DNA of 64,000 bases from the NCBI GenBank assembly GCA_964449115.1, contig CAYUXW010000006.1, positions 1,927 through 65,926 of the forward strand. Direction: 5' to 3'. The first letter of the stretch is position 1; the number at the start of each line of letters is the position of its first letter. Under the pieces are notes generated by a model that was not told the origin of the DNA, did no database searches, and saw nothing but the letters and a program-made list of their open reading frames with translations. Below, in pieces: positions 3,220 to 25,732 of this stretch. Origin of the DNA: an uncultured Erysipelotrichaceae bacterium. Its GTDB lineage: Bacteria; Bacillota_I; Bacilli_A; Erysipelotrichales; Erysipelotrichaceae. The translations under genes and the position numbers were made by a program.

Positions 3220-4011
3220 ATGAATATTGTTGTTTGTATTAAGCAGGTTCCCGGTACAACTAATGTAAAAGTAGATCCTGTTACAGGAGTTTTAATTCGT
3301 GATGGCATTCAATCCAAGATGAATCCCTATGATTTATATGCCCTGGAAACAGGATTACAGTTAAAAGAAAAAACTGATGGTAAAGTTACTGTCATCTCTA
3401 TGGGTCCCCCTGCTGCTTTAGAGATTCTAAAAGAAGCCATTTACATGGGAGCTGATGAAGGAATTTTAATCAGCGATAGAAAGTTTGGAGGGGCTGATGT
3501 TTTAGCTACCGCCTATACCCTTTCTCAGGCTATTAAAACCATCGCTAATGTCGATTTGATTTTAACCGGTAAGCATTCAACTGATGGTGATACCGGACAG
3601 GTTGGGGCTGAAACAGCTGAATTTTTAAATTTGCCACATTTCGGATATGTTTCTGATATTGAAATCAAAGGTGATAAGTTGCAGTTTTTCTCTAACTTAG
3701 ATACTACTATAATAAAAGCTACTATCACTTTACCTTGTGTTTTGTGCATTGATGGTGATGTTAATACTCCTAGACTTCCTTCCTATAAAAGAAAGGTTAG
3801 GTTTGCTGACTGTAAAGAACAGATCAGAATCATATCTTTTAATGACATGGAAGATCAAAACGAAAATAAATACGGCCTGAAAGGATCGGCAACCCAGGTT
3901 GAGAAAATCTTTAACCCAGAAAAAACAACCGACAGACTGGTTCTTCAAGGGACAAAAGAGCAAATTGCTGGTGACTTATTTAATGTTTTAAGAGAAAGGA
4001 AGTTTATCTAG
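3220..4011 (+). CDS. etfB: Electron transfer flavoprotein beta subunit
   Basis: 263 aa. MNIVVCIKQVP...NPYDLYALE...ISMGP is the classic EtfB signature. RBS is GGAGG. Confidence 0.9.
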   Translation: MNIVVCIKQVPGTTNVKVDPVTGVLIRDGIQSKMNPYDLYALETGLQLKEKTDGKVTVISMGPPAALEILKEAIYMGADEGILISDRKFGGADVLATAYTLSQAIKTIANVDLILTGKHSTDGDTGQVGAETAEFLNLPHFGYVSDIEIKGDKLQFFSNLDTTIIKATITLPCVLCIDGDVNTPRLPSYKRKVRFADCKEQIRIISFNDMEDQNENKYGLKGSATQVEKIFNPEKTTDRLVLQGTKEQIAGDLFNVLRERKFI

Positions 4012-4012
4012 T

Positions 4013-5209
4013 ATGGCTTTAAAAATTAATCATCATCTTGTTAATGAAGAAATCGCTAAAAAGTTAGTAGATATTTGTCCTTTTAAGGCAATTGAATACC
4101 AAAATAATAAACTATCAATAAATGCGGGCTGTAAAAATTGCAAGATCTGCGTTAAAAGAGGTCCTGCCGGTGTTATTGAAGATGTAAAAAACGAAATCAA
4201 AGAAATAGATAAGGACCAGTGGAAAAATATTGTCGTTTATGCCACCATTGAAGAAAATAAAGTACATAAAGTAACTTATGAACTGATTGGAAAAGCTAAA
4301 GAGTTAGCCCAGCTAATAAACCAGCAGGTACATGTTCTAGCTATTGGCTATAATTTATCTTATGCAGCTGAAAAAATCCTGCGCTATGGGGCTGATAAAG
4401 TCTTTCTCTATGACCATGAAAAACTACAACACTTTGATGTCGAAAGATATACCAATATCTTTGAAGATTTCATCAACAAAAATAAACCTTCTTCGATTTT
4501 ATTTGGAGCAACAAATATTGGCCGATCACTAGCGCCAAGAGTAGCAGCTAGATTTAGAACTGGTTTAACAGCTGACTGTACAGCTTTGGAAATAAAAGAA
4601 AACACTGATCTGGTTCAGATAAGACCAGCTTTTGGGGGAAACATTATGGCTCGTATAATCAATCCAAACCATCGTCCTCAGTTATGCACTGCTCGTTACA
4701 AGGTCTTTGATGCTCCAGAAAAAATAGCTACTCCTACAGGAACTGTTATTAACTGTATTGTTGAAGAAAAATGGTTAAAATCTAATGTTGAAATTCTGGA
4801 AATTATCAACAAGAAAAAAGAAGAAGATCTTTCAGAAAGTGAAATTATCATCGCTATCGGAAGAGGGGTTAAATCAAAAAAAGACTTTGAGCTTGTCTTT
4901 GAACTGGCGGATTTATTAAATGCTTCTGTAGGCTGCTCTAGACCTGTTGCTGAAGCTGGTCTGCTTGACTCCAAACATCAGATTGGCCTGTCAGGAAAAA
5001 CCGTAAAACCAAAGTTAATAATTACTCTGGGTATCTCTGGCTGTATTCAATTTACCACTGGGATGAAAGATGCTGAATGTATTATCGCCATAAACAATGA
5101 TCCATCTGCTCAGATATTTGATCTGGCACACTTTGCGGTATTAGGTGATATTTATGAAATAGTTCCAGAACTTATCAAAATCATTAAGGAGGAAAATCTC
5201 AATGTATAA
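4013..5209 (+). CDS. etfA: Electron transfer flavoprotein alpha subunit with N-terminal ferredoxin-like Cys cluster
   Basis: 398 aa. N-terminal CPFKAIE...CKNCKICV, followed by the EtfA/FixB core and the C-terminal FAD-binding region (IAIGISG...QHxxG-like). Starts 1 nt after the etfB stop. Confidence 0.9.
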
Positions 5210-6596
5210 AACTTTTGACAACTTTGATTTAGCATATCTAAAAAGCATTGTTGATAATGATAGAATTTATGGCAAAGAAAATATTTCCAGCGATTTCTCA
5301 CATGATGAGCTGGGTACCTTGAAAAATTATCCTGATGTTTTAATCAAGGTGAAAACCGTTCAGGAAATTTCAGACATTATGAAATATGCCTACGAAAAAA
5401 ATATCCCTGTAACTGTTAGAGGTTCAGGAACAGGACTGGTAGGAGGGGCGGTTCCACTGGAAGGTGGAATTCTGCTTAACACTTCCCTGATGAATCAGAT
5501 TCTTGAACTGGATGAAAACAATTTCTCGATTACAGTAGAACCAGGAGTCTTACTGATGGATTTAGCTGCCTATGTAGAAGAAAATGACTTCTTTTACCCA
5601 CCTGATCCGGGAGAAAAATCAGCAACTATCGGGGGTAATATTTCTACCAATGCCGGTGGTATGAGAGCGGTTAAATATGGTGTAACCAGAGATTATGTCA
5701 GATCTCTTAAAGTAGTAATGCCTAATGGTGATATTGAAACCTTTGGTGGCAATGTCGTTAAAAACTCTTCTGGCTATTCTTTGAAGGACTTAATTATTGG
5801 TTCAGAAGGAACACTGGCGATTGTGGTTGAAGCTACTTTAAAGCTTTTGCCACTTCCTAATGAAAGTATTTCTTTGCTAGTACCATTTAAGACAATGCAA
5901 GAAGCTTTAGATGCTGTGCCTGAAATACTGCGCTCAAAAACCAATCCAACGGCTGTTGAATATATGTCAAAAGAAACTATTCTCAACAGTGAAAAATTTT
6001 TAGGCAAGAAATTTCCTGATACCAGATATGATGCTTACCTGTTATTAACCTTCGATGGAAATGATGTTAAATCAATTGAAGAAAACTATAGTAAAGTTGC
6101 TGATTTATGTCTTTCTTTAGGAGCAATTGATGCCTATTTCGTTGATACTGAAGAAAGAAAAAAATCAGTCTGGTCAGCCAGAGGAGCCTTTTTAGAAGCG
6201 ATTAAAGCTTCAACCGACAAGATGGATGAATGTGATGTTGTTGTACCAAAAGATAAGATTGCTGATTATATCAAGTACACTCACCAACTATCTAAAGAGT
6301 TAGATATCAGGCTTCCTTCCTTTGGCCATGCCGGAGATGGAAACCTGCATATCTATTTATGTAAAGACGGTATGGATGAACAGCTGTGGCAACAGAAGCT
6401 ACAATTAACATTTGAAAAACTATACCAGAAAGCTGAAGAAATGAATGGCCTTGTCTCTGGAGAACATGGTATCGGATATGCGAAAAAAGAATACCTAAAA
6501 GAAAGCTTAGGTGAAAATCAAATCAGACTGATGCAGGAAATTAAAAAAGTATTCGATCCTAAAAATATTTTAAATCCTGGTAAAATCTGTCAATAA
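5202..6596 (+). CDS. FAD-binding oxidoreductase of the GlcD/LctD (D-lactate dehydrogenase/glycolate oxidase) family
   Basis: 464 aa. Contains an FAD_binding_4-type region ([13 protein letters not shown]) and C-terminal GEHGIG. Overlaps etfA by 8 nt (ATGTATAA). Confidence 0.85.
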
Positions 6597-16351: not shown

Positions 16352-17035
16352 CTAAAAATCACGCAATTTTTCAGGGGCTTTTTCACAAAGCTCAACTATT
16401 TGTTGATAATTTGTTTTTTCCACCAGTGGTTTTGCCAAATGTAAATACTTTACAACATCTTTCTGCTCTTTTTTATAATAGGCAATTTTGGCAAGTCTGA
16501 AATAGGTAATCCCCTTTTGAATACCTTTCTGTCGATTTGCCAGCTGTAATAATTCATTTTTTAAAGAAACATCCTTATCAATATAGAGTCTAAAGATTCT
16601 ATCAGCTTCCTCTTTTATTTCCTTATATTTTGTCTGATTATTGCCTTCCAGGATTTTATTGATAGCATCTAAAGCCTGTTTTGATTTCTTTTTATTATCA
16701 GCTTTCGCAAAATAGGATAATTTCTTCAGATTGAAGTCTAACAATTCACCCTTGTTCAGATGCAGATCTTCAACTTTTTCAAATTGCTTTTCAATGATTT
16801 CTGCATCATCAAGCATCATATAGCCATCTAAAATAAGGTTCTCTATTGTTCCCTTAGGATAAAGAATCTTTAATAGCTTATTGTTATTTAAAACGGTGAG
16901 ATAAGTTTTTACATCATTATTAACATATAAAATTTCTTCCAGTTTTAAAGTTGTTTCTCTTCTAAGTCTAGTAAGTTGCAATATGATAAAAATAATGATA
17001 ATGCCTATCAGCAGGATAAATAATTTATTTTCCAT
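16352..17035 (-). CDS. Hypothetical N-terminally anchored helical-repeat (TPR-like) protein
   Basis: 227 aa with a single N-terminal TM helix followed by all-helical repeat-like sequence. Confidence 0.45.
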   Translation of the reverse strand: MENKLFILLIGIIIIFIILQLTRLRRETTLKLEEILYVNNDVKTYLTVLNNNKLLKILYPKGTIENLILDGYMMLDDAEIIEKQFEKVEDLHLNKGELLDFNLKKLSYFAKADNKKKSKQALDAINKILEGNNQTKYKEIKEEADRIFRLYIDKDVSLKNELLQLANRQKGIQKGITYFRLAKIAYYKKEQKDVVKYLHLAKPLVEKTNYQQIVELCEKAPEKLRDF

Positions 17036-20843: not shown

Positions 20844-20989
20844 ATTATCTCCTTGATATGTTAACATATTAAGTATACTTTTATAGTATTATAATCATTC
20901 AATTATGTCAATTAAGATTAAAAAAAATAAATTAAGATTATAGTTTTATTCAAATTTATGTGATACCATAATAAAAAGAGAAACTAAAT

Positions 20990-23900
20990 ATGGATAAAAA
21001 ATTAAGAGAACAATTGTATGAAATACTAAACAATCTTCCTTCCGAAAATGCTTGTTTAGATTATAAAACGATACCTTATAAAAAAATGAAGGTGGAGAAT
21101 TTATCAAAGATCTAAATGGTTTTTTAAATTCCAACGACGGCTATGGTGAAGATAAATTTATTATATTTGGCATTCAAGATAAAAATCATAATAAAAATTT
21201 AGTTGGTATTCAAGAAGGTTCTCCTTTATTGGATGACCACTGGTTTCAAGATCATGCAAAAAAAATAACACCTAGACCTTGTATAAAGGTTGGAACAATT
21301 GAATATGAAGAAAAAAATGTTGTTTATGAAATTGGATATGTCTATATTCCAGCAGATAAAAACGATGATAGAGTGTACTCAATAAATAAAAATTATCCCG
21401 ATGAAGGCACTGTCTTTAAGAAAGTCAAAGAAAGTGGAACATTTAATGGTACATGGGCATTAGCTTCTACAGCTTACATAAGGAATGGCAGTACAACAAA
21501 CTATCTAACCGAAGAAGAGAGAAGAAGAATATATGAAGCAGATTCAATGAACAAAAACAATAAATTTTTTAACAAATTAGCCCTATATGATTCATCAAAA
21601 ACAAAACTTGATAACCATATTTTAAAAATGATTGTTTTAGTCGGTTCATGGGATGAAAATAATAAAAAAGATAAAGAATTAATCAGTGAATTAGTAGGAC
21701 TTCCTTATGATGAAATATTCATATATTTAAGCCAAAGTGTAAGCGAAGGAAATGGGTTTTTGAATTTTAAAAACAACAAATGGATTGTAAACAATAGATT
21801 AGAGTTATTGAATAAAATGTCTAGTTTTTATTCAAAAGAAAATATTAAAACTTTTCAAAATAAAGCCATCAATGCTCTGTCTAATTATAATCCTAAATTT
21901 GATTTAGCTCCTGAAGAAAGGCTGATAGGCAATTTTGGCGACGATAAAACAAGCTATTCAGAAATATTAAAACATTCAGTTTCTGAAGTTTTGCCGATGA
22001 TTGCTTCGATTGCTGATAAATTTAAATTTTGTAAAGAGGAAGTCAAAAATTTGACATACAATGTCATAGACAAAATATTAAGTTCAACAAACTGGAAACT
22101 TTGGGCAACTTTAGAAAATTGTTTACCATTATTTGCAGAAGCTGAACCATCTTTATTTTTGAAAAAAATAGCAGATAAAATTTTAAGCGAACCTAATATG
22201 ATGAAGGAACTAATGACAACAAGCAAAAGGTTTATTACTACTACTTATTATACAGATGGTTTATATAATTCTTTTCGATTAATAGCTTGGCAAGAAAACC
22301 ATTTAGTTTCAGTTTGCGTAATTCTTACAAACCTATTTAATTATGATAATAAAGCAATTGATGTAATAGCAAGAATATTGTTGCCATGGTATCCACAAAC
22401 TATGGCTAATTTAGAAGTAAGAGAAGCCGCGATAAAAAATGTTTTGAAAGAAAACAAAGAAGTAGGTTGGCAATTACTTATGAAATTAATGCCTAAAAAA
22501 ATTACTTCTACAACTCCATCGCCAAAACCTAAATGGAACAATATAATCCCAGAAATTGATGAAGACGTGTTAGTAAGTGATTACTGGATACAAATTGAAA
22601 ATTATATAAAATTAGCTTTAGAAACAGCTAATAATGATGTCAATAAATTATCTCAGTTAATATATATTCTTGACGATGTCCATAAGGATTTGTTTGGTAA
22701 AATTGTCAATCATATGTCACAAAAATCAATTTTAAACTTATCTGATGAAGAAAAATATCCTTTATGGGATAAAATTGAAGATTTTATTAATAAGCATTTA
22801 AGGTTTTATGATGAAGAATGGTCTTTACCAAAAGACCTTCTTGATAAATTAAAAGAAATGTCAGATTTGTTAAAACCAAAATCATTATTAGTATTTAACA
22901 GGAGATTTTTTAAAAGGGATTTTTGGAAATTACAAGACAACAATTTAGATTATGATGAATATTTAAAGGCTTTAGATGAAAAAAGAATTAATATTTTAAA
23001 AACAATTTATGAACACGGAATTGATTATGTTATTAAATTTGTTGAAGAAGTTGAAGACCCATATGCTGTAGGGTTTTGCTTAGGTAGTATACAAATTTCT
23101 AAAGCAGATGATAAAAACATTTTTTCTTTTTTAGATTCTAGTAATGAGAATTTCTGTTTGTTCGCAAAAGGATTTACTTATAAAAAATACTGCGAATTAG
23201 GCGATGATTGGCTAAATGGTTTTGATATAGAAAAATGGAATATTAACAAAAAAATAAATTTACTTATAACACTTCCAAAAAATGACTCAACATGGGAAAA
23301 AGCATGTAATTATTTAGGCGAAAAAGAAGATTATTATTGGAAAAAAGTCGACATACACGTTATAGAAAAAGGGTCTGATATAAATTATCCATTAGAAAAG
23401 TTATTAGGTGTTGAAAGAGCAAATATTGCTATAAATATAATTGGACAAGCCATATTGACTGAAACAAATTATGATATAAAATATGCCATAAAAGCATTGA
23501 ACGATATGTTAAATATGCAAGAAAACATTAATAGTGTTAACACTTTCTACATACAAGAAATCATCAAAGATTTGCAAAAATCAAATATTTCTAGAGATGA
23601 ATTATTTAAAATTGAATGGTCTTATTTATCAATTATGGATGATTCAAATTGTAGACCTATTACAATTGAAAAAGAATTGTCAAACAATCCTAAAACATAT
23701 GTAGAACTTTTAAAATTGGCATATAAACCTATGAAAGCAATTAATGAAAAATACGAATTTGATAAAAGAGCTTCGAATGCTTATAGGGTACTTCATAAAT
23801 GGAAAACACCACCAGGTTTAAATGAAAACAATCAAATTGATAAAGTTAAATTAGAAAATTGGTATAACGAAATGAGAAATTTAAGCGAAAAAGAAGATCG

Positions 23901-24228
23901 ATTAGAAGTAGGTCTAACTAACTTTGGCAGAGTTTTATTCTATTCTCCTAAGGATAATAACGGTCTATGGATTGATAAGAATGTTGCTGAAATTCTAAAT
24001 GATCCATATGCAGAAAACGTTAGGAAAGGTTTTAGCGTAGAAAATTATAATTCTATCGGAGTAGTGACTATTGATTCAAAAGGAACAGTATATGAAGAAA
24101 AAGCAAAAGAATTTGAAGAAAAAGCAAAGAATATAGAAATGGCTGGATATAATAGAATAGCTAATGTAATGAGAAAATTAGCAAATAATTGCAGAAGAGA
24201 AATAGAACGAATTAAAGAACGCTATTAA
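20990..24228 (+). CDS. Large orphan protein with Schlafen/AlbA_2-like N-terminal domain. The reading frame is broken by a 1-nt frameshift in an A7 run (21080-21086).
   Basis: From the ATG at 20990 the frame gives MDKKLREQLYEILNNLPSENACLDYKTIPYKK. Adding one A continues it as NEGGEFIKDLNGFLNSNDGYGEDKFIIFGIQDKNHNKNLVGI..., which runs into the 999-aa tracked ORF (21229-24228). The pattern E..LDYK...FIKDL.GFLNS.GG..IFGI.D...VGI matches the AlbA_2 consensus (E..lEfK...i.k.i.AfaN..GG.l.iGv.d...ivG). I saw no P-loop, HEPN or nuclease motif in the remaining ~900 aa. Confidence 0.7.
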
Positions 24229-24346
24229 TTTAAGGAATAAAAAAAGAAATGAAAAATTAACTTTTATAAAAATTGAATTGTAGAAAGCAAAGATAATGTC
24301 AAATCAAATGTGTAAGTAGTTAAATGAAACATTTCAAATAATATGT

Positions 24347-24382
24347 AATTTATATTGGAAGGCTAGCCTTCCAATATAAATT
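24347..24382. terminator. 36-bp perfect palindrome, a bidirectional terminator between convergent genes
   Basis: aatttatattggaaggct/agccttccaatataaatt followed by TT(TT). Confidence 0.7.
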
Positions 24383-24640
24383 TTGCGGTTAACCTATAGG
24401 GTCATATTTTTCAATAATCTGCTTGAATATATCATATATTATAAGTTGGCTTCTTCCTAATGACCAGTTAGATACAGACCGGTTATTTCATTTTCTATAC
24501 AGTTCCTATATACATAAATATGACATTTGGTATAGTGCTCTTTTATTTGAAAAAGTACCTTGCTTGGTAGAGTTTAGTTAAATAAAGCGCTCTACTTTAA
24601 ACATTTAAAGTAACCATTAAATTATAACCTTCCAAAAGGA

Positions 24641-25732
24641 TTAGTCATTTTTTAGAAATTTATATCGATACCCATAATTATAGTATAAAAGTTTTTTTAA
24701 ATCTTTATCATCAATTTTCCCTACCACATTTACTCTCTCATCTCTCTTTTTGTCTTCTAAGACAATCTGCATTTCACCAGAATAGCGACCATAAAGTTTA
24801 TTATCAACGGTTATGCTTCCTTTTAATCTATCAGCAGTATTATCAATTTCTATTACACTGGCATACTGAGACATTTGTCTGCTGCTTCGCGATCTTAAAA
24901 ATGATGCATTGGAATCATATCTGAATTCATGAGTTTTCAAAACTATATCATTATAATTATCATTTAATAAATCAACTTCAATCTCTAGAGGTTGATGATT
25001 AATAACAGCATCAAACTGCTTAAAGCTATACTCGCTGTAAAAATTGTCTGAAAAGATAAATGAATCTGTTTTATAGACATATAAAAGCTCTAAGGTTATT
25101 AAAACTATATCACTATACCTATGCTTTTCAATTGTTGGAAGCCCCTTATAAACTGGTCCTCTGGCTCTGCTTAAAGAAGGTATAAAATAATAAATTGGAA
25201 GATTGTATTTTCTTAGCATTTCATCCTGTCTTAAAGCAAAGTCCTTATCCAGACCGCTTTCTTCTCTAGGATAGAAATTATGACAGGCTTTAATTTCAAC
25301 ATTTCCTAAACTATTAAGAAATTGTATTTTTTCTTCTATCTCTTTTTCCTTATACATTGATGCATTGATTACAAAGCCTTTAAGATTAAACTCTTTATAA
25401 AGAGTTATGACATCTTCCTGATCATAGCCATAATCCAGTCTGATAAAAGCTATTTCTACTTCTTTTAATTTTTCCAGATAATGCTTATCATCTAATATTT
25501 TTTTAAGATGGGGACCACCAATATCGACAGTCAAATCCATCTGATACTCCTTGGCTAGCATTGATATATAGCGTAGCGATTCAATTTGTTGGCTAAGAGG
25601 CAATTCTGGCAAATGAACCGTTGAAAAAATCTCTGTAAAGCCATATTTTTTAGCTAATTGAATATATTTGTCCCACCTTGCTATATTGTAATTTGTATGG
25701 AGCCCAGGGAAAATTGAGATGCATTTATTCAT
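24641..25732 (-). CDS. DUF871 family protein (MupG-like 6-phospho-N-acetylmuramidase family)
   Basis: 363 aa from the ATG at 25732. N-terminus ISIFPG...YIQLAKKYGFTEIFSTVHLPE resembles the DUF871 TIM-barrel N-terminus. Confidence 0.65.
   Translation of the reverse strand: MNKCISIFPGLHTNYNIARWDKYIQLAKKYGFTEIFSTVHLPELPLSQQIESLRYISMLAKEYQMDLTVDIGGPHLKKILDDKHYLEKLKEVEIAFIRLDYGYDQEDVITLYKEFNLKGFVINASMYKEKEIEEKIQFLNSLGNVEIKACHNFYPREESGLDKDFALRQDEMLRKYNLPIYYFIPSLSRARGPVYKGLPTIEKHRYSDIVLITLELLYVYKTDSFIFSDNFYSEYSFKQFDAVINHQPLEIEVDLLNDNYNDIVLKTHEFRYDSNASFLRSRSSRQMSQYASVIEIDNTADRLKGSITVDNKLYGRYSGEMQIVLEDKKRDERVNVVGKIDDKDLKKLLYYNYGYRYKFLKND

Follow-up and report, generated by a model that had tools for sequence, protein, structure and literature searches.

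The region analysed is a stretch of 64,000 nucleotides (the window) from an uncultured Erysipelotrichaceae bacterium (contig CAYUXW010000006.1), and the element under study is a broken plus-strand gene for a Schlafen-type protein. The long plus-strand frame ends at 24228 and is given by the mechanical listing of open reading frames (ORFs) as 21229–24228, 999 codons from a TTG start and without a catalytic motif. It is the only plus-strand ORF of at least 200 residues in a run of minus-strand genes from 8282 to 44081, in agreement with the initial annotation, which had described it as the sole plus-strand gene among its neighbours. The 5' part of the gene is a 41-codon plus-strand ORF that starts at the ATG at 20990 and extends to 21115, encoding residues 1–32 of the Schlafen domain followed by nine out-of-frame codons. 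The peptide ...ENACLDYKTIPYKK is read in one frame, and ...EGGEFIKDLNGFLNS... resumes one base back, in the -1 frame; the N-terminal peptide reconstructed earlier is present in these two pieces. The gene is split at codons 32–33 by a one-nucleotide deficit in a run of seven A residues (A7, 21080–21086, plus strand). Adding one A to this run yields a protein of 1,079 residues with no further stop and a homolog-like junction (...YKKNEGGEF). The intact gene of about 1,079 codons that had been reported is absent from the DNA, which holds a 41-codon ORF and a 999-codon ORF joined only by the added A.

The exact 999-residue product was recovered from at least nine independent metagenome assemblies (run series SRR8925xxx, SRR20818xxx and SRR35116082), which are 99.9–100% identical to the window, have the phosphotransferase system (PTS), PIG-L and GNAT neighbours in common and read A7 in all nine cases and A8 in none. 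Because A7 recurs in nine independent short-read assemblies, a sequencing error was ruled out and the frameshift is a real mutation; the frame correction had been taken as a mere reading problem, but the gene is truly frameshifted in this lineage. An intact ortholog of 1,079 residues (P0070) is 91% identical to the window protein and falls in the same 90% cluster. On its contig (L102), which is 94% identical in DNA, the ortholog lies in the same slot with flanks that match both the GNAT side and the DUF871 side, and the frameshift site reads AAA GAT AAA GAA. Since so close a relative fills the same slot with an intact gene, the break is both real and recent. Comparison of the repaired window gene with L102 gives a ratio of non-synonymous to synonymous substitution rates (dN/dS) of 0.35, and the value is the same for the first 200 codons and for those that follow. 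Judged from these sequence comparisons, the frameshift is lineage-specific, recent and fixed.

The A7 tract could instead serve as an expression switch, with A7/A8 phase variation, transcriptional slippage or a -1 slip on A-AAA-AAA permitting some full-length protein to be made. The shift needed is a -1 shift on an A-run of lysine codons and gives exactly the homolog-like junction, and the 999 codons 3' of the frameshift contain no second lesion. The count of nine A7 to no A8 speaks against a switch, and so do the intact homologs (37–63% identity), which have no A-run at this site, the loop between 'PY' and 'F(I/V)KD' being variable. A conserved programmed frameshift or recoding signal was ruled out on the same ground, and as the 91% identical ortholog also lacks the A-run the feature is not conserved. 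An A7 run is moreover short for efficient slippage. We regard a switch of this kind as very unlikely. On the reading frames found, the window copy is most likely a non-functional pseudogene whose catalytic motif, immediately 5' of the break, is stranded on the 41-residue peptide and parted from the other 999 codons by the missing A. Because that motif sits in residues 1–32, the 999-residue remainder cannot be an active nuclease. The public annotation of the 999-residue protein is an artefact: the product (P0001) is on record in NCBI, Logan and ENA, and the 41-residue fragment is annotated as a gene of its own in L001–L003, L006, L007 and L009. Public records list the TTG-start ORF as an ordinary protein without a pseudogene flag, and no Pfam match is recorded for P0001, an annotation that hides the Schlafen domain.

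The gene lies within a lineage-specific accessory insertion of 3.8 kb (20856–24647) between the start of the GNAT gene and the end of the DUF871 gene. Nucleotide homology to the metagenome relatives L104 and L105 (78% at the nucleotide level) stops at 20855 and resumes at 24648. The gene order in these relatives is ABC2-ABC1-DUF871-GNAT, and their ABC exporters are 83–85%, GNAT proteins 79–81% and DUF871 proteins 68–72% identical to those of the window. Because the DUF871-GNAT junction is empty in both, with a spacer of only 70–135 nucleotides, the 3.8 kb represent an insertion, as the initial annotation had supposed. The insertion is older than the split from the L102 lineage. The GC content is 26.8% for the insertion and 27.3% for the gene compared with 32.8% for the window, and at third codon positions it is 18.9% for the gene versus 25–29% in its neighbours. 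The low GC content noted earlier for the plus-strand gene is thus borne out, but the PTS genes have about 38% GC and not the 43% given at the time.

Residues 1–200 of the repaired protein (20990–21588, plus strand, interrupted by the frameshift) make up a Schlafen/AlbA_2 nuclease domain. This assignment, first made by eye, passes both a Pfam profile search and a fold search. SLFN_AlbA_2 (PF04326) matches residues 19–148 with 34.6 bits against a gathering cutoff of 25.3, and precomputed matches to the same family exist for about 50 full-length homologs. The AlphaFold2 (AF2) model of residues 1–200, built on 16 family sequences, has a pLDDT of 88.7. When this model was compared with the PDB by Foldseek, the best 12 matches were the SAMD9 tRNase, SLFN13, SLFN14, SLFN11 and SLFN5, plus 7q3z at rank 12, which is titled only 'DNA/RNA binding protein'. 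These 12 have probabilities of 0.87–1.00 and E-values of 1e-5 to 7e-3, with a best TM-score of just 0.49, and unrelated folds appear below them at E > 0.08. The catalytic motif E19-N-A-C-L-D24-Y-K26 (Ex4DxK) is encoded at 21044–21067 on the plus strand. In an alignment of 16 family members its three residues E19, D24 and K26 do not vary; among 39 members E19 and K26 are invariant and D24 is at least 90% conserved. The spacing matches known triads, as the active-site motif of prokaryotic Schlafen (pSlfn) proteins is defined as Ex4(E/D)xK (PMC13056530) and the active site of CbCash consists of E17, D22 and K24, mutation of which abolishes tRNA cleavage and toxicity, while non-catalytic Schlafens such as mouse Slfn2 are without the catalytic residues (PMC13462974). 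The N-terminal domain has a Schlafen fold with an intact catalytic triad, and because of this triad the AlbA_2 domain is itself an effector of the tRNase type, although no obvious effector had been seen in the protein before. By analogy with the characterised Schlafens, the substrate of the nuclease would be tRNA.

The C-terminal ~875 residues form a module that is almost entirely helical. Its opening element, residues 205–270 (21601–21798, plus strand), has the topology H-E-H-H-E-E in the AF2 model and a G-x-W-D/E motif, with G219, W221 and W265 nearly invariant in 64 relatives, and is a putative winged-helix element. Residues 271–1079 (21799–24228, plus strand) are modelled as an all-helical, HEAT/ARM-like α-solenoid body with a conserved helical end domain, presumed to be a sensor or regulator. 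The full-length AF2 model, built from a 64-sequence alignment, has a pLDDT of 84.1 and a pTM of 0.67; it is helical past residue 270, has a low-confidence stretch at ~740–810 and contains short β-hairpins at most within residues 205–1079. A fold search of the PDB with the full model returned generic HEAT/ARM solenoids only (listerin, CAND1 and karyopherins) at E-values of about 1e-3 and with TM-scores of 0.06–0.16 when normalised to the query and no higher than 0.22 when normalised to the target, which is consistent with a solenoid though not with a specific family; the same model gave nothing useful in a BFVD fold search. Residues 205–1079 of the window protein and seven relatives have no match in Pfam, its repeat families included, NCBIfam or PADLOC-DB 2.0 (2023 models; E up to 1 for the window protein and up to 0.01 for the relatives), and no match to PDB sequences with either the single sequence or the 64-sequence profile. 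The residues invariant across the 64 relatives are mostly Trp, Gly and Pro (W784, E876, P942, G943, W958, G980 and G1032), the near-invariant positions include an 'LPWxPQT' motif, and neither a catalytic constellation nor a P-loop is found among the conserved residues of the module. By analogy with other effector-sensor proteins, the C-terminal ~875 residues may act as sensor and regulator of the nuclease.

The gene had been called an orphan, but its family is large. A word-indexed search gave 69 homologs, about 50 of them full-length (1,060–1,090 residues, with PF04326); about 20 are more distant and align over the C-terminal ~80% only, having other N-termini. An exhaustive phmmer search with residues 205–1079 against 1.84 billion representatives gave 4,290 matches at E ≤ 1e-3, corresponding to at least 4,290 clusters at 50% identity, and 1,789 at E ≤ 1e-30. 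A scan of GTDB species representatives with an AlbA_2-clade query found 118 relatives, which span Firmicutes, Proteobacteria, Cyanobacteria, Nitrospirota, Acidobacteriota, Verrucomicrobiota, candidate phyla and methanogenic archaea, the nearest representative protein being merely 44% identical to the window protein.

The effector is swapped among these relatives, and the N-terminal extensions of the module homologs measure about 0, 190, 290, 380 or more residues. Besides Schlafen/AlbA_2, the module is found with a ~290-residue domain having invariant E21, Q25, D61, D62 and Q81-x-K83 (PD-(D/E)xK-like by motif only), a ~380-residue unassigned domain, an Rx4H HEPN-like domain with a weak DUF4145 match (fused also in L080), a SIR2_2 domain (P0085, matching the PADLOC model of pAgo-associated SIR2 at 6e-100), GT4-conflict, a Metallophos domain that matches PADLOC PDC-S60, and a helix-turn-helix (HTH) domain of the XRE or MerR type, while a protein kinase partner is encoded as a separate upstream gene. 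PDB profile searches with the N-terminal classes B, C and HEPN-like returned no matches, so the reading of these classes as nucleases or HEPN domains follows from motifs only (E..DD..QxK; Rx4H).

The module also occurs on its own. At about 19 loci it is a separate protein of ~865 residues, and its gene adjoins or overlaps the end of the gene upstream, which encodes the ~290-residue domain, the HEPN-like domain or a protein kinase; two-gene loci of this kind, with the partner at position -1 of the match, include L046, L047, L051, L056, L073 and L088, further L041, L043, L049, L050, L074, L077, L091 and L096, and also L065, L075, L081 and L084. All of the upstream proteins end in 'LLGxWxE....D..I..L', which corresponds to residues ~213–236 of the window protein, and the split point therefore lies inside the putative winged-helix element. 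A cut at this position argues for a tight physical complex, which the effector and module proteins of the two-gene systems may form, to judge from their termini.

The genomic contexts of the relatives associate the module with defence systems. The neighbours of 80 GTDB loci were clustered and the cluster representatives annotated with Pfam. In raw counts, HsdM, HsdS and HsdR of type I restriction-modification (R-M) systems flank the module gene in 13 of the 80 loci, usually in the order hsdM-hsdS-gene-hsdR, and BrxC, PglX, PglZ and BrxL of bacteriophage exclusion (BREX) systems flank it in five, with the gene between pglX and pglZ. Of the 47 loci that have 5 kb or more of sequence to either side, 14 lie within a type I R-M or BREX operon. 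Members of the AlbA_2 clade show the same tendency. P0036 adjoins a tyrosine integrase, followed by DUF6076, HTH_17, TnpV, a cluster of Dam, N4/N6 methyltransferase, Mrr and DpnII genes, AIPR and an AAA_15 ATPase. P0041 has BrxL, a MazG-like protein, an SLFN-g3-type helicase, a protein kinase and a DUF2726 helicase on one side, and on the other a C5-methyltransferase with a MutH-like protein, WYL, Fic and DUF2397. P0003 lies between a ResIII-Eco57I enzyme and GmrSD, L018 adjoins a C5-methyltransferase/MutH-like pair, L092 forms part of a type I R-M operon together with GmrSD, and L023, L024, L026 and L028 adjoin integrases. These positions beside integrases, R-M, GmrSD, BREX and AIPR genes or inside type I R-M and BREX operons lend support to the proposal, made from the sequence at the outset, that the gene has a role in defence. 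They agree with published data: a known defence gene is found no more than 10 kb away for 69.6% of pSlfn genes (PMC13056530), and BREX loci have been reported to contain Schlafen and HEPN RNases as embedded back-up effectors (PMC12839542). A second Schlafen gene (AlbA_2 plus HATPase_c_4, 577 residues) shares BREX or type I R-M loci with the module gene, at 3905–5638 of both L034 and L057 and also in L042, L045 and L067, so that some loci hold two different candidate back-up effectors.

C-terminal module homologs are also carried by 24 plasmids, 11 of them conjugative, and no phage-encoded homolog was found in 50,697 phage records. This distribution brings up the possibility of a selfish addiction or anti-plasmid conflict module, in which a toxic nuclease and its cis-acting inhibitory domain would stabilise the carrier or exclude competitors. 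Along with the plasmids and the lack of phage homologs, the integrases that flank several AlbA_2-clade copies fit such a role, as do homologs beside parAB or the AbiEi/AbiEii toxin-antitoxin genes and one annotated as a HigA-family antitoxin. There is, however, no conserved partner antitoxin gene, a location within type I R-M and BREX operons typifies effectors that serve as an anti-phage back-up (PMC12839542), and phages are the target of the pSlfn proteins tested to date (PMC13056530). We consider an addiction module unlikely, and the addiction and anti-phage roles are in any case not mutually exclusive.

The plasmid homologs are annotated as 'hypothetical protein', 'helix-turn-helix transcriptional regulator' or 'HigA family antitoxin'. 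HTH-fused relatives of 1,354–1,370 residues, among them L113 (3023–8709, on a Rhizobium gallicum plasmid) and L114 (152–4264), bear the names 'helix-turn-helix transcriptional regulator' or 'HigA family addiction module antitoxin', and one is beside an AbiEi/AbiEii pair; these names probably reflect just the small N-terminal HTH. A DNA-binding regulator or nucleoid-associated protein would account for such relatives, with the AlbA_2 domain and the winged helix binding DNA and the solenoid providing an interaction scaffold, and with no nuclease or immune function. The plasmid-borne relatives with XRE, MerR or HigA-type HTH domains, the winged-helix-like topology at the start of the module and the name 'putative DNA binding domain-containing protein' given to a homolog by one source are in line with this view. 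It is difficult to reconcile with a nuclease triad that is invariant in the AlbA_2 clade, whereas non-catalytic Schlafens lack it (PMC13462974). The same module is, moreover, joined to SIR2, HEPN-like, kinase, metallophosphatase and GT4-conflict partners, which are effectors and not DNA binders, and its relatives are embedded in R-M and BREX operons. A purely regulatory role is accordingly quite unlikely in our judgement.

In the window, the broken gene is followed by the perfect 36-bp palindrome reported earlier (24347–24382), which has a 16-bp stem and a 4-nucleotide loop, folds at -20 kcal/mol (z = -3.6), is flagged as terminator-like and lies between convergent genes; it is probably a bidirectional terminator. 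A repeat or mobile element was considered and set aside, as no second copy occurs within the window and the unique palindrome is more likely a terminator. All short-read (Logan) contigs with the gene (L001–L009) end at window position 24376, inside the palindrome, which is attributed to k-mer assembly failing at a palindrome longer than k. As the palindrome seems to break such assemblies, the public contigs never bridge to DUF871. L102 and the window have different intergenic DNA 3' of the gene. The decayed HTH-like remnant that had been suggested downstream was not recovered, since 24229–24640 contains only chance-sized ORFs of 22–52 residues. No Rfam family reached its gathering score anywhere in the window (1–64000), whether tRNA, rRNA or riboswitch. 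In L103 (1–620), the closest GNAT relative (86% amino acid identity), a different ORF ('...GLGPGLTPSGDDFLIGY...') is found upstream of GNAT, neither DUF871 nor the Schlafen gene, and the region upstream of GNAT is thus variable among relatives. On the minus strand, the GntR regulator and the PTS IID gene enclose a 227-residue ORF (16352–17035) that has no Pfam family recorded, in L001 as in the window, and seems to belong to the PTS operon as one of its uncharacterised genes.

Comparison with known systems places the window protein closest to the pSlfn proteins, such as RorSlfn5 with its Ig-like sensor and the DUF262-Slfn protein EcoSlfn7 (Perez Taboada et al., Nat Microbiol 2026, PMC13056530). 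Both have PF04326 and the Ex4(E/D)xK motif, combine effector and fused sensor in a single polypeptide and reside in defence islands. The fused part here is a winged-helix-like plus α-solenoid module of ~875 residues and not an Ig-like, HisKinase, DUF262 or HTH domain, the window copy is frameshifted, and the subfamily is known here from sequence alone. As 17% of pSlfn proteins are fused to unannotated domains (PMC13056530), the window protein probably falls in this category. The CRISPR-associated Schlafen-Csx15 protein Cash (Weickert et al., Nat Commun 2026, PMC13462974) has the same nuclease fold and the same E-x4-D-x-K motif (E17/D22/K24 versus E19/D24/K26), and the Cluster 4 of that paper, with an unknown C-terminal domain and R-M association, fits the contexts of the family by description only. 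In contrast to Cash, the window family does without a Rossmann-like, CARF or Csx15 nucleotide sensor, is not associated with CRISPR and cannot be activated by cA4.

In the defence-associated sirtuin DSR2, an N-terminal toxic enzyme likewise precedes a long α-solenoid C-terminal domain, which in that protein binds a phage tail tube protein and thereby switches the enzyme on (PMC11850899, PMC11263360). The relative P0085 bears an N-terminal SIR2 domain, but the window protein has none, and its effector is a Schlafen RNase in place of an NADase. DSR models are absent from the PADLOC matches of the window protein (E up to 1) and of P0085 (up to 0.01), and the 50 best fold matches listed do not include a DSR2 structure. 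PrrC and RloC offer a parallel in position. The E. coli prr locus encodes a tRNA-targeting suicide nuclease, with an ABC-ATPase and an anticodon-nuclease domain, within a type I R-M operon near hsdS and hsdR, where PrrC provides a second line of defence should restriction be neutralised. Relatives of the window family fill the same hsdS-hsdR slot, but the folds are unrelated, the window protein has no P-loop and no match to an ATPase or PrrC family in Pfam, NCBIfam or PADLOC, and the window copy is not beside an R-M system. The Avs proteins and other STAND nucleoside triphosphatases (NTPases) also combine a constant, repeat-containing sensor with interchangeable N-terminal effectors (nucleases, SIR2, kinases and others). 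The window family differs in being helical, with no NTPase domain, Walker motifs or Rossmann-like core, and the window protein has no Pfam or PADLOC match to NACHT, NB-ARC or STAND.

Taken together, we consider it probable that the locus is a horizontally acquired 3.8-kb cassette carrying a single-gene pSlfn defence protein that was recently inactivated by the loss of one nucleotide. In the intact 1,079-residue form, as represented by P0070, the N-terminal ~200 residues would be a metal-dependent Schlafen/AlbA_2 endoribonuclease using the triad E19-D24-K26. By analogy with pSlfn, Cash, SLFN and SAMD9, the enzyme would cleave tRNA and arrest translation, leading to abortive infection or growth arrest. 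The C-terminal ~875 residues would keep the nuclease off until an infection cue binds; candidate cues are a protein of the phage and the inactivation of an adjacent R-M or BREX system. Activation would probably occur by permitting the Schlafen domains to pair, in line with the active sites of prokaryotic Schlafens, which form at Schlafen-Schlafen interfaces (PMC13462974). The published pSlfn fusions protect against phage by tRNA cleavage, with the fused domains acting as sensors (PMC13056530, PMC13462974) and setting the phage specificity (PMC13056530). It is the loops of tRNA that prokaryotic Schlafen domains cut once the sensor has been triggered.

Several observations weigh against this interpretation. 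The neighbourhoods of the window copy, P0016 and P0027 consist of ordinary genes with no recognisable defence genes, and PADLOC (2023 models), a check proposed in the initial annotation, recognises neither the window protein nor its C-terminal module. Some relatives have an HTH in place of an enzyme, which fits a regulator as well as an effector-sensor scheme, and the window copy cannot yield a full-length protein by standard decoding. The defence role of this Schlafen-solenoid subfamily is suggested by genomic context and analogy, and the winged-helix and sensor assignments are based on predicted topology together with analogy. Extending the interpretation to the whole family, we suggest tentatively, and with more doubt than confidence, that the winged-helix-like plus α-solenoid module is an unnamed, widespread and NTPase-independent immune sensor or guard of bacteria and archaea, with interchangeable effectors that are either fused to it or paired with it. 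A module located in R-M or BREX operons could monitor the integrity of these systems, in the way that PrrC watches over EcoprrI, or recognise a conserved phage protein.

The protein is not undescribed as a kind, as was first thought, since prokaryotic Schlafen nucleases with diverse sensors were shown in 2025–2026 to be anti-phage (PMC13056530, PMC13462974), and unannotated fusions as well as the R-M-linked Cluster 4 are already mentioned in that literature. A limited literature search found no description of this sensor module, its family size, its effector swapping, its split forms or its embedding between hsdS and hsdR or pglX and pglZ. For the window genome itself the message is a modest one, that of an acquired and recently pseudogenised gene with a probable role in defence. 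The interesting part of the locus is the shared helical module. Most of the fused "sensor" domains of prokaryotic Schlafen tRNases are still unannotated, and the locus points to a large sensor-type module whose conservation extends from Firmicutes to archaea and which is missing from Pfam, NCBIfam and PADLOC. No fewer than eight kinds of N-terminal or partner domain are combined with it, and several of these are recognised defence effectors. The intact ortholog P0070 and the split two-gene forms provide directly testable constructs. If the module is indeed a sensor, it would represent a new NTPase-free solution to phage recognition and would offer a way to study how restriction systems are coupled to their back-up suicide effectors.

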